From positions 12,255 through 76,254 of the forward strand of contig JAHLMN010000005.1 in NCBI GenBank assembly GCA_018920345.1: a stretch of 64,000 nt of DNA, given 5' to 3'. The DNA is from Candidatus Aenigmatarchaeota archaeon. Its GTDB lineage: Archaea; Aenigmatarchaeota; Aenigmatarchaeia; CG10238-14. Both the position numbers and the translations under genes were made by a program. How positions within the stretch are numbered: position 1 is the stretch's first letter; each line of letters opens with the position of its first letter. Below the pieces are notes generated by a model that searched no databases, was not told where the DNA came from, and was given only the letters and a program-made list of their open reading frames with translations. Positions 786 through 58,507 of this stretch are shown in pieces.

Positions 786-1082
786 ATGAAGTTAACAAAA
801 ACTCAAGTTATGAAAAAATTAAAGGAATGTTATGATCCTGAAATACCTATAAATATTGTTGATTTAGGTTTAGTATATGATGTGAAAATTGAAGGAAAAA
901 ATGTTTATATAAAAATGACTTTGACTTCTATAGGATGTCCATTAGCAGGTTTTATATCAGAAGATATACAAAATAAAATAAAAGAGTTGGGAGCAGAAAA
1001 TGTAGAAGTTGAAATAGTTTGGGATCCTCCGTGGACTCCAGATAAAATGTCTAAGCAAGCGAAAGCAATTTTAGGAATTTAA
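786..1082 (+). CDS. DUF59/MIP18-family Fe-S cluster assembly protein (SufT-like)
   Basis: 98 aa with the characteristic DUF59 pattern: YDPEIPINIVDLGLVYDV...TLTSIGCPLAG... Confidence 0.7.
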   Translation: MKLTKTQVMKKLKECYDPEIPINIVDLGLVYDVKIEGKNVYIKMTLTSIGCPLAGFISEDIQNKIKELGAENVEVEIVWDPPWTPDKMSKQAKAILGI

Positions 1083-1223
1083 TTCCTTTTCCATTTCATT
1101 TACTTCTAATAAAAATCTATTGACAACTTTAGGTACATCTTTTTCTTCAACTCTAAAAATTTCTGCTATTTTTTTCAGAATTTCTTCCTTATTTTTTAAT
1201 TCTTGCCATTCTTTATAATTCAT
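1071..1223 (-). CDS. Small hypothetical protein (50 aa), possibly co-transcribed with the MBF1-like gene
   Basis: ATG-initiated minus-strand ORF MNYKEWQELKNKEEILKKIAEIFRVEEKDVPKVVNRFLLEVNEMEKELNS. It starts 26 nt downstream of the MBF1-like stop. It is too short for the ORF track and has no family signal. Confidence 0.25.
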   Translation of the reverse strand: MNYKEWQELKNKEEILKKIAEIFRVEEKDVPKVVNRFLLEVNEMEKELNS

Positions 1224-1249: not shown

Positions 1250-1681
1250 TTAATCTATCTTTGCGACATCACCTATGGTTAACTCAGCTTTTTTATAATC
1301 CTTTTTAGTGAAAGTTGAATCTATTTTTTGTAAAATTTTTATTCCAAGCTGTTTTTCTATCTTTTTTGCAATTTCAACTTCAGGTATCAATTCTTCTGAT
1401 TCAATTCTTCTTAAAATGTTTTCTTTAATTCTAATTTTTGAAGCAAAATCCTTTCTAGATAAATTGTTTTTTTCTCTAGCTTTTTTTATAATTTCACCAA
1501 AATTATCTATTAAATCATATTCTTCTTCCTTTATTTTTTCCTCTTTTACTTCTTCCTTCTTTTTTTCTAATACTATTTGCCCAAATGATGAACAATTTTT
1601 ACATACTTCTACAATTGCATCTTCAACCTTTATTTTTACAAGATCCTTTTCATCTTTTCCGCAAATAGTGCATTCTGGAAT
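1250..1681 (-). CDS. mbf1: MBF1-type transcription cofactor (N-terminal zinc ribbon plus C-terminal XRE-type HTH); start codon uncertain
   Basis: Minus-strand translation reads (L-I-K-G-V-F-I)PECTICGKDEKDLVKIKVEDAIVEVCKNCSSFGQIV...DLIDNFGEIIKKAREKNNLSRKDFASKIRIKENILRRIES...DYKKAELTIGDVAKID*. This is the archaeal MBF1 architecture (CxxC...CxxC then HTH). There is an in-frame TAA at 1700-1702 and no ATG/GTG/TTG before the first Cys, so the start may be ATT at 1679-1681. Confidence 0.65.
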   Translation of the reverse strand: MPECTICGKDEKDLVKIKVEDAIVEVCKNCSSFGQIVLEKKKEEVKEEKIKEEEYDLIDNFGEIIKKAREKNNLSRKDFASKIRIKENILRRIESEELIPEVEIAKKIEKQLGIKILQKIDSTFTKKDYKKAELTIGDVAKID

Positions 1682-1834
1682 AAAAACACCCTTTATTAAT
1701 TATATATATTTTTGAGAAAAAATTTAAACATAAACATATTTTAAATACTTTCTAAACAAAATTTATTAAATGAGGTTTTTTGGTGTTTATCGGATTGATT
1801 TTTTGTTTAATTAATAAAAAAAAGGTGATTTTCT

Positions 1835-6104: not shown

Positions 6105-6471
6105 AGCACAAAAAGCTGTAATAATATTTTTTGTTTTAACATTTTTAATAATAGGAAGTCTTTATATAATTTACATAAACAAAAAACCAAAATATAATAA
6201 AAATGACATAATTTTCTTTTATGGAGTTACATGCCCTCATTGTAAGAATGTGGAAGAATTTATAAACCAAAATAATCTTGATTCTAAAATAAGTATAATA
6301 AAAAAAGAAGTATATTACAATCAAACAAATCTTTCTGAATTAATGAATTATGCTAAGAAATGTAACTTAAAAGAAGATCAAGTAGGAGTACCATTTATCT
6401 ATTATCAAGGTAAATGTTATATAGGAGATAAAGAATGTATAGAGTTGTTAAAGAGCTTAACAGGTGTTTAG
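6097..6471 (+). CDS. Membrane-anchored thioredoxin-fold protein with DsbA-type CPHC active site
   Basis: N-terminal TM helix (VIIFFVLTFLIIGSLYIIYI), then FFYGVTCPHCKNVEEFI...GVPFIYYQGKCYIGDKECIELLK. Cys-Pro-His-Cys is the DsbA catalytic motif. The start overlaps the arsR-like stop. Confidence 0.6.
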   Translation: MNEAQKAVIIFFVLTFLIIGSLYIIYINKKPKYNKNDIIFFYGVTCPHCKNVEEFINQNNLDSKISIIKKEVYYNQTNLSELMNYAKKCNLKEDQVGVPFIYYQGKCYIGDKECIELLKSLTGV

Positions 6472-9906: not shown

Positions 9907-10835
9907 ACATACCTAGAGGCGCTTATGTAGCTGTTAAACAATGTATGAAAATAAAAAAAGGAGAAAAGGTTTTGATAATTACTGATCAAAAAATGAACCA
10001 GTTTTTGTCAAAATCAATAGAATATGTTTGCAAACAACAAGGTGCTAAAACAAGTCTAGTTAATATAAAACCTTTAGAAAGAAATGGTCAGGAGCCAGAA
10101 AATGAAATAGCAAAATTAATGAGAGAATTTGATGCGGAGTTTTTAATTACATCAAAATCTCTTAGTCACACTAAAGCAAGAAAAAAAGCGTGTGAATCAG
10201 GAGCAAGAATAGCATCAATGCCTGGAATAACAGAATTTTCTTTTACTAAAGGAGGTTTGACAGCAAATTATAATAAAGTTAAAAAATTGTGTTTAAAGAT
10301 GTTTTTTGAAATTAAAAAGGCAAAAAAACTCGAGCTGAAAAGTTCTAATGGAACAGACATAATTTTTGAAATTGGAGATTATGCTTTAGACATAGATGAG
10401 GGTTTATATCATAAACCAGGTGATTTTGGAAACTTACCAGCAGGTGAAGTATCTACATCACCAAATGATTTTTCTGTTAATGGAAAATTAGTTATAGATA
10501 AAATGGGTAGATTTGGAGAAAACATTATTTTTGAAATAAAGGATAGTTTTGTAGAAAAAATAAAAGGTTCAAAAATTTTAGAAGAAGAAATTGAAATATT
10601 AGGAAATAAAGTAAGAATAATAGCAGAATTTGGTATAGGTACAAATCCAAAAGCAAAAATAATAGGAAACATTTTAGAAGACGAAAAGGTTTTAGGTACA
10701 GTTCATATGGCAATTGGAAATAATACATCTTATGGAGGAAAAAATGACGTTCAGTTTCATCAAGATGGAATTATATTTAAACCTCATTTGATTGTTGATC
10801 AAAAAGTTTTGATAAAAAATGGTGAATGGGTTTGA
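9903..10835 (+). CDS. M29-family aminopeptidase (aminopeptidase T / AmpS-like)
   Basis: GNLPAGEV...IAEFGIGTNPKA...GTVHMAIGNN pattern. ATG at 9903 forms an ATGA overlap with the alaS stop. The tracked alternative start 9873 is in the same frame. Confidence 0.7.
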   Translation: MNIPRGAYVAVKQCMKIKKGEKVLIITDQKMNQFLSKSIEYVCKQQGAKTSLVNIKPLERNGQEPENEIAKLMREFDAEFLITSKSLSHTKARKKACESGARIASMPGITEFSFTKGGLTANYNKVKKLCLKMFFEIKKAKKLELKSSNGTDIIFEIGDYALDIDEGLYHKPGDFGNLPAGEVSTSPNDFSVNGKLVIDKMGRFGENIIFEIKDSFVEKIKGSKILEEEIEILGNKVRIIAEFGIGTNPKAKIIGNILEDEKVLGTVHMAIGNNTSYGGKNDVQFHQDGIIFKPHLIVDQKVLIKNGEWV

Positions 10836-57971: not shown

Positions 57972-58055
57972 GCTGGAGTCGCCTAACCTGGTATGGCACA
58001 GGCCTGGAGAGCCTGCGGGCGAAAGCCCTTGCGTGTTCAAATCACGCCTCCAGCG
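57972..58055 (+). tRNA. tRNA-Ser (anticodon GGA), class II with long variable arm; no encoded CCA
   Basis: Hand-folded. Acceptor GCUGGAG/CUCCAGC (7 bp). D-stem GCC/GGC with a GG-containing loop. Anticodon stem CAGGC/GCCUG with loop CUGGAGA. Variable arm GGGC-GAAA-GCCC. T-arm GCGUG-UUCAAAU-CACGC. Discriminator G. A T-rich tract follows. Confidence 0.85.
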
Positions 58056-58098
58056 CTTTTTCTTTTATATTTTCAGTTTAATTATTAAATTTTTGAAA

Positions 58099-58173
58099 GG
58101 GGCAGTAGTATAGCTTGGTCTAGTATTCCAGCTTGGGGTGCTGGCGACCCGAGTTCAAATCTCGGCTGCCCCA
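58099..58173 (+). tRNA. tRNA-Pro (anticodon GGG); no encoded CCA
   Basis: Hand-folded. Acceptor GGGGCAG/CUGCCCC. Anticodon stem CCAGC/GCUGG with loop UUGGGGU. T-arm CCGAG-UUCAAAU-CUCGG. Discriminator A. The D-stem has two G-U pairs. Confidence 0.8.
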
Positions 58174-58507
58174 CTTATTAATATTAAAAATATTTAGAAG
58201 CAAAAGCAATCTGATATAGATTGATTATAAATAAAAACCTAAGGCCATGCTCTATAATTAGATGAGTTTGGTTTTTTAAAAAAGAATTTTATTAAAAATA
58301 ATTAACAAAATTAGATTTAACAAGTTAAAACTATTTTTAATTTTATAAATAACATTCTATACAAAGATAAAAATTATTATTTTTATTAATCAAGAAATAA
58401 ATTATATATTAAAAATCTATAACAAAATTTTTATTAATAATAATTTTAGCGATAATAATTTTATTTTCAGTAAAAAAATTAAAAATTTTTCTATTTAAAA
58501 AACAATT

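Follow-up and report, generated by a model that had tools for sequence, protein, structure and literature searches.

A probable AUU-type start codon behind a conserved Shine–Dalgarno motif in the aMBF1 gene of an Aenigmatarchaeota genome and its orthologues

We examined the gene for an archaeal MBF1 homologue (aMBF1) on the minus strand of a 64,000-nt stretch of DNA from the metagenome-assembled genome (MAG) of a Candidatus Aenigmatarchaeota archaeon; this whole stretch is called the window below, and its minus-strand coordinates are given in the text from high to low. The G+C content along the window is 26–34%, the gene for isoleucyl-tRNA synthetase (IleRS) lies divergently upstream of MBF1 and that for alanyl-tRNA synthetase (AlaRS) lies a few kb off. 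The minus strand reads TAA (1702–1700) TTA ATA AAG GGT GTT TTT ATT (1681–1679) CCA GAA TGC ACT ATT TGC GGA as the MBF1 frame opens, and an earlier account of this DNA, made from its letters and a program-made list of open reading frames (ORFs) and hereafter termed the sequence-only reading, had described the frame as holding no ATG, GTG or TTG between the TAA at 1700–1702 and the first Cys codon. Both the sequence and its translation agreed with this description. The features of the locus to which we refer are as follows.

1250–1681, minus strand: aMBF1 coding sequence as proposed here, with an ATT start, 143 codons and a TAA stop at 1252–1250.
1334–1489, minus strand: helix-turn-helix (HTH) domain HTH_3, residues 65–116, from Pfam.
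1388–1390, minus strand: TTG, the first in-frame canonical start, codon 98; it would give a 46-amino-acid fragment that lacks the zinc ribbon and most of the HTH.
1592–1672, minus strand: zinc ribbon with Cys4/Cys7 and Cys27/Cys30 (CTIC ... CKNC), from the translation and alignments.
1636–1689, minus strand: out-of-frame decoy, read from the sequence, in which the GTG inside the Shine–Dalgarno (SD) motif opens a 17-codon frame ending at TAA.
1679–1681, minus strand: ATT, the proposed near-cognate start codon, aligned with Met1; ATT, ATC or ATA stands here in 24 distinct orthologue DNAs.
1682–1686, minus strand: TTTTT, the non-coding spacer from SD to start codon, variable in length and sequence among orthologues.
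1687–1691, minus strand: GGGTG, the proposed SD motif, with its core GGTG at 1690–1687; GGTG is invariant in the 24 orthologue loci just mentioned.
1694–1696, minus strand: ATA that fits the 148-amino-acid database protein P0001; it lies 5′ of the SD, and we do not consider it the real start.
1700–1702, minus strand: in-frame TAA closing the MBF1 frame six codons upstream of the ATT.
1723–1728, minus strand: TTTAAA, a candidate TATA box of the MBF1 transcript.

The 143-amino-acid product scored 117.6 bits against the NCBIfam profile TIGR00270 (aMBF1), for which the equivalog cutoff is 110, with protein residues 3–142 aligned to profile positions 1–158 of 159, and the Pfam domain HTH_3 (Cro-like HTH) was found at residues 65–116 with an E value of 9e-10, so that the identification of the gene as an MBF1 homologue in the sequence-only reading holds. 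Both CxxC pairs, C4-T-I-C7 and C27-K-N-C30, are kept across the aligned orthologues. Judged by all of the sequence-level defining features, every one of which was tested and found, the window protein is a typical aMBF1 family member. Its nearest database relative is P0001, an NCBI-sourced protein of 148 amino acids from a Candidatus Aenigmarchaeota MAG, which is 99% identical. The earliest ATG, GTG or TTG in the frame is the TTG at 1390–1388, codon 98 counted from the ATT, and because of this the ORF list holds for the MBF1 frame only a 46-amino-acid tail; the gene is indeed missed there, as had been said. Since 3.0% of the internal codons of window genes are ATG, GTG or TTG, a stretch of 97 codons that contains none (P of approximately 0.05) is by itself mildly unusual, not extreme. 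The key point is that no canonical start follows the upstream stop before the conserved zinc-ribbon N-terminus is reached.

We propose that a full-length, functional aMBF1, comprising zinc ribbon and HTH, is translated from the near-cognate AUU at 1681–1679, and we put the probability of this at roughly 85%. In protein alignments the ATT of the window falls on Met1 of distant aMBF1 proteins, which begin MPFC, MGSC, MSRC, MGAC or MSEC in the pattern MxxCxxCG (MSECELCGS, for example), and the suggestion that initiation here would give M-PECTICGK, matching the starts of archaeal MBF1 proteins, is in keeping with this position. The ATT stands 5 nt after GGGTG. In the window genome GGTG serves as an SD sequence: it is found at a 5–7-nt spacer before 7 of 35 window gene starts as against 0.8% of all positions, an enrichment of approximately 25-fold, and in the neighbouring IleRS gene AGGTGAT precedes the ATG by 5 nt, so that the GGTG core is at 7 nt. 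Among the approximately 35 plausible genes of the window, MBF1 alone has no canonical start close to where its open frame begins, and the proposed near-cognate start is thus gene-specific within the window.

The same motif touches the listed starts of other genes in the window. At two plus-strand loci (6464/6473 and 6969/6978) the first in-frame canonical codon is the GTG of the SD itself (CAGGTG and GAGGTG respectively), with an ATG 6 nt later, and the ORF-list starts at 6464 and 6969 are probably three codons too long; the same trap mis-starts MBF1 orthologues. At 10826/10832, also on the plus strand, the listed ATG abuts GGTGA, and GGTG stands 7 nt before a TTG that follows two codons later.

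Orthologue loci were drawn from species-representative genomes, metagenomes and contigs encoding individual database proteins, and the DNA was read around the first Cys codon; we write AUH for ATT, ATC or ATA. In all 24 of the 24 distinct Aenigmarchaeota AUH loci, which come from both MAGs and metagenomes, GGTG is followed after 5–7 nt by ATT, ATC or ATA, and ATG occurs at this codon in none of them (0/24). The comparison with orthologues that had been named as a check on the start therefore supports it. The spacer is 5 nt long in 14 loci, 6 nt in seven and 7 nt in three. The window and 11 other distinct sequences, sharing 55–73% amino-acid identity, make up what we call clade A, and its spacers, with three loci of a larger second family, are distributed as follows.

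Clade A, 5-nt spacer after GGTG: the window, L001, L081 and L082.
Clade A, 6-nt spacer after GGTG: L004, L005, L028, L074 and L075.
Clade A, 7-nt spacer after GGTG: L003, L029 and L080.
L083, larger second family: GGGTG, 6 nt, ATT.
L086, larger second family: GGGGTG, 6 nt, ATT.
L087, larger second family: GGGTG, 5 nt, ATC.

All members of clade A show (G/A)GGTG, a spacer, ATT (10 loci) or ATC (two loci) and then CCA or TCA followed by GAA TGY, and their spacers are T-rich and otherwise unconserved in sequence. In clade B, which consists of sediment metagenome sequences and one MAG, G(A/G)GGTG is followed after 5 nt by ATA in eight sequences and by ATT in one. No spacer sequence is conserved from one clade to another, and neither 5 nor 7 nt is divisible by three. 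As close relatives have spacers one or two bases apart in length but keep the frame from AUH onwards, these data indicate that coding starts at AUH and that GGTG lies outside the coding sequence. No in-frame canonical codon is present between the upstream stop and AUH in 14 of the 24 loci, and in L001, L005 and L087 the upstream in-frame stop is just three codons before AUH. In addition, the Ile of the orthologues sits exactly at the Met1 position of more distant aMBF1 proteins in protein alignments. Two loci nested in the ATA clade, L064 and L069, have a different upstream region without an SD and start with ATG, and the loci that we fetched from Methanomicrobiales, Desulfurococcales, Micrarchaeota and Nanoarchaeota all have canonical starts. 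At the start codon of clade A the third position is T in 10 sequences, C in two and A in none, as compared with 62% ATA at other conserved Ile columns; this bias is weak evidence, as there are other single columns in which one codon is fixed.

Upstream of the SD, clade A carries a conserved TTTAAATTTTTT block centred approximately 42–47 nt before AUH. The distance from TATA box to transcription start site in archaea is usually approximately 26 nt, and applied to this block it would give a leader of 15–21 nt containing the SD. A distal element of this kind, TTTAAATTTTTT in clade A and AATATTTATTT in other loci, is centred at approximately −38 to −49, from which a leader of approximately 11–22 nt, SD included, would follow, whereas a proximal AT-rich TATA-like element has a variable centre at −17 to −28. 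In a genome of 72% A+T, promoter inference from AT-rich elements is suggestive, not decisive. RNAalifold predicted no conserved pairs between −40 and +40 around the start.

The divergent arrangement of IleRS and MBF1 is common to the Aenigmarchaeota relatives examined. Within the approximately 150-nt IleRS–MBF1 intergenic region of clade A, which was compared between window positions 1703–1834 and L001, L074, L075, L081 and L082, there are conserved blocks such as TATTTAAAA, TTTAAATTTTTT and CCGATAAACA. Approximately 85–100 nt separate the TATA-like elements from the IleRS ATG in clade A, and the IleRS leader may therefore be long; in clade B the MBF1 and IleRS start codons are only approximately 60 nt apart.

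Several points weigh against initiation at the AUU. The evidence for it, from uncultured organisms, is comparative throughout, and in vitro with Sulfolobus components aIF1 keeps 30S complexes off an AUU model mRNA (reviewed in PMC4705826). The finding that GGTG stands at 5–7 nt in 24/24 AUH loci versus 4 of 42 distinct canonical-start relatives has to be read with the fact that possession of GGTG was part of how the AUH class was defined, yet no locus was found with AUH at this place and without GGTG. In 7 of 24 orthologues, those with 6-nt spacers, the MBF1 frame includes the GTG of the SD, which could serve as the start there; it is annotated as such, giving the N-termini MFFISEC, MLFIPEC, MCFIPEC, VSFIPEC, VKPIPEC and MSTISEC. 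The window and some clade B loci have AT-rich TATA-like elements approximately 25 nt upstream of AUH. Finally, the window sequence comes from a MAG, and for the window alone a single G-to-T change would suffice to turn an ATG start into ATT.

It is on this last point that a base-call or assembly error, with ATG misread as ATT, or a decaying pseudogene would have to rest, and a base error had indeed been put forward in the sequence-only reading. However, this codon is ATT, ATC or ATA, never ATG, in 24 distinct orthologues, and separate assemblies of the same orthologue have identical start regions: L001 (NCBI) and L002 (Logan) agree, as do L075 and L076, and likewise L028, L077, L078 and L079 from JGI, ENA and Logan. 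Because the arrangement is conserved in orthologues and reproduced between assemblies, a sequencing error is refuted by these comparisons. Decay fares no better, as the orthologue ORFs are intact at 141–144 codons and, over codons 2–38 of nine clade A sequences, the median non-synonymous divergence (dN) is 0.13, the synonymous divergence (dS) is 1.3 (about 0.9 or more, saturated) and dN/dS is 0.07, which indicates that the zinc-ribbon segment is translated and under purifying selection. We regard error and decay, taken together, as having next to no probability. The same segment decides the case of a downstream internal start, the other possibility that had been raised: each downstream canonical codon removes at least the first Cys pair, within the segment under purifying selection, and a start of this kind, which would delete the conserved zinc ribbon, was rejected.

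Two further possibilities place the start within or upstream of the SD. The ATA at 1696–1694 is near-cognate and in frame, the database protein P0001 begins there, ATA is the codon at the start position in clade B, and its use would give MKGVFIPEC. However, this ATA stands upstream of the SD with no second SD in front of it, the additional K-G-V-F-I would be encoded by the SD and a spacer that varies in length and sequence among orthologues, and the ATA is conserved in no orthologue, the homologous position in L001, L005 and L087 even falling beyond an in-frame stop. We therefore consider it highly unlikely, and of the rare ATT or ATA initiation suggested in the sequence-only reading the ATT part stands, with its Met1 alignment, its SD at 5 nt and its 24 orthologues, whereas the ATA part probably does not. 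Initiation at the GTG within GGGTG (1689–1687), with the frame regained by ribosomal or transcriptional slippage or with one T dropped in assembly, draws on the T-rich spacers of clade A and on the fact that T6 in place of T5 would give GTG TTT TTT ATT CCA, i.e. MFFIPEC, which resembles the MFFISEC of P0005 and P0009 and the MLFIPEC of P0008, all with a 6-nt spacer; moreover, yeast MBF1 is an anti-frameshift factor (PMC6301793), which makes feedback attractive. Against this, the GTG frame of the window ends after 17 codons, 5-nt spacers would need a −1 shift and 7-nt spacers a +1 shift, so that the direction is inconsistent, many 5-nt spacers (TCTAT, TCTCT, TTACC, TTAAC and TAAAC) are not slippery, and the same homopolymer error in all 14 loci with a 5-nt spacer, from many assemblies, is impossible. 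With spacers of 5, 6 and 7 nt and non-slippery sequences, a GTG start with a frameshift or dropped T was rejected, and we leave it a very small probability. A comparably small one attaches to a leaderless mRNA starting at or beside the AUU, in which GGTG would be a promoter-proximal DNA element. Besides the TATA-like elements approximately 25 nt upstream, it has in its favour that many window genes have no SD and look leaderless. The proximal element, however, is at no fixed distance and in L083 and L087 is too close for a start at AUH, the distal element is consistently found at approximately −38 to −49 and predicts an SD-containing leader, and the SD-less loci L064 and L069 have ATG. Leaderless initiation depends on a 5′ AUG.

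An SD-directed AUU start bears directly on how these genes have been annotated. Two protein searches gave 140 clusters of this aMBF1 type, of which all but one with a named source come from Candidatus Aenigmarchaeota or Aenigmatarchaeota, and their N-termini divide as follows.

96 of 140 clusters: canonical N-terminus at the homologous position.
16 of 140 clusters: extended N-terminus, with Ile at the homologous position.
About 23 of 140 clusters: call without the first Cys pair; some may be contig-end truncations.
5 of 140 clusters: other N-terminus.

For the window gene and its close orthologue, NCBI-sourced proteins imply three different non-canonical starts. P0001, from the window gene, fits the ATA upstream of the SD (MKGVFIPEC), and for L001, an orthologue of 73% identity, P0002 has the ATT start and P0003 begins at the codon of Ile6; a Logan gene call, P0007, cuts the same orthologue (L002) back to the GTG of Val26. 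Gene callers confined to ATG, GTG and TTG thus miss, shorten or over-extend this conserved gene, and a rule of SD, 5–7 nt and AUH at the Met1 position would correct such calls. When the sequences verified at the DNA level were placed in a neighbour-joining tree, clade A formed a monophyletic group apart from the other AUH groups. Fitch parsimony on this tree, which is weakly resolved for a protein of 140 amino acids, required six or more changes between the canonical and the AUH state, and on a safe reading the start codon appears to have switched between AUG-type and AUH several times, at least two.

With regard to mechanism, a short 5′ leader, of a length estimated from the promoter elements, would carry the SD GGGUG (1691–1687), which would pair with CACC(U) at the 3′ end of 16S rRNA and set the P site of the 30S subunit 5 nt downstream on the AUU. 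The initiator tRNA would there pair with two of the three AUU bases, so that the product would begin with Met, and the weak codon may set a low or conditionally variable rate of synthesis. The invariant GGUG-type SD fits compensation for a weak start codon. As aIF1 disfavours AUU complexes, AUU initiation should be inefficient and sensitive to initiation stringency. In the passage of PMC6301793 that cites Blombach 2014, aMBF1 is described as binding the 30S subunit and the 70S ribosome, and in yeast Mbf1 keeps stalled ribosomes from frameshifting (PMC6301793). By analogy with infC and eIF1, it is conceivable, although speculative and rather unlikely in our estimation, that the AUH start of aMBF1, a factor that binds the 30S subunit and is connected with translational accuracy, is a regulatory device which ties synthesis to the permissiveness of initiation (for example, to aIF1 activity or to aMBF1 occupancy of the 30S subunit) in a feedback loop. 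If true, the repeated switches from AUG to AUH, the obligatory strong SD and the gene-specificity in the window would reflect selection for that loop. The alternatives to feedback are tuning for low-level expression, or drift in small, A+T-rich genomes.

Other features of the window and its relatives are recorded here in their own right. Downstream of MBF1 by 26 nt and on the same strand, an ORF of 50 amino acids (1071–1223, minus strand; MNYKEWQELKNKEE...) overlaps at its 3′ end the convergent FeS_assembly_P gene (786–1082, plus strand). A gene of 49–52 amino acids is called at the matching place in all clade A loci, and a Pfam search of the 50-amino-acid ORF at 1071–1223 gave no match. In L083–L088, which group with P0065, P0124 and P0129, the MBF1 stop region instead shares 14–20 nt with the start of an acylphosphatase gene, at the place where clade A has the 50-amino-acid ORF. 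More than half of the window is taken up by a single uninterrupted ORF of 11,259 amino acids (19062–52841, plus strand; 33.8 kb) with AGGTGA 9 nt before its ATG and a G+C content of 0.33 as compared with 0.27–0.30 in its flanks. Its only Pfam matches in the first 4,900 residues are MG2, NPCBM_assoc and DUF11, with no match in the next 5,000 residues, and the product is probably a giant surface protein. A tandem of tRNA-Ser(GGA) and tRNA-Pro(GGG) at 57972–58174 (plus strand) gave the sole Rfam and ARAGORN matches in the window.

Compared with known systems, the window protein is like other aMBF1 proteins (TIGR00270) in its N-terminal CxxC...CxxC zinc ribbon, linker, HTH_3 domain and C-terminal LTIGDV motif, and its gene differs in starting, as we propose, with AUU, whereas most archaeal orthologues start with AUG. 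Genes with programmed frameshifting or slippage have a conserved slippery sequence and a single direction of shift, and neither is present in the MBF1 loci. Leaderless archaeal mRNAs have TATA at approximately 26 nt and a 5′-terminal AUG; at the MBF1 loci the proximal element ranges from −17 to −28 and the codon is not AUG. Archaeal starts are generally described as AUG, GUG and UUG (PMC4705826). Archaeal initiation at near-cognate codons, as proposed here, has a parallel in ribosome profiling of Haloferax volcanii, in which approximately 30% of putative alternative initiation sites were near-cognate (PMC7261190). Those sites differ in that they received no further analysis, and none is known to be conserved or to serve as the only start of a gene that looks essential; the evidence here is comparative rather than experimental. 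No paper dealing with a non-canonical start, whether of archaeal MBF1 or in Aenigmarchaeota, turned up in the literature searched, and a search on the MBF1–paromomycin phenotype yielded nothing directly relevant. The MBF1 start would add a new case, conserved and recurrent, to a feature already known, the SD-directed near-cognate start codon. An AUH start that is phylum-wide, gene-specific and repeatedly evolved would be rare comparative evidence for such initiation of an archaeal core gene, and the association of its product with the ribosome raises the question of infC-like or eIF1-like feedback on initiation stringency in archaea.

In the autoregulation of eukaryotic eIF1 and eIF5 through poor start context, as here, a gene of the translation machinery has a suboptimal initiation site of its own, and the archaeal factor aIF1, which is homologous to eIF1, discriminates against AUU in vitro (PMC4705826). 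The eukaryotic case differs in that it involves scanning and Kozak context, whereas placement here would be directed by the SD. To our knowledge, MBF1 is not an initiation-fidelity factor, and we know of no autoregulatory loop for aMBF1. The AUU of infC is proven to be autoregulatory because IF3 discriminates against AUU, and E. coli pcnB is another gene with an AUU start available for comparison. Bacterial infC, which encodes IF3, resembles the MBF1 gene in having a conserved near-cognate AUU behind an SD and a product that acts on the small ribosomal subunit (reviewed in PMC4705826). It differs in being bacterial, with the IF3 machinery and another protein as its product, where the archaeal setting involves aIF1 and aIF2, and the MBF1 codon varies between AUU, AUC and AUA and has repeatedly switched with AUG. 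In both infC and MBF1 of the window type, an unusual start codon has been kept across many species.

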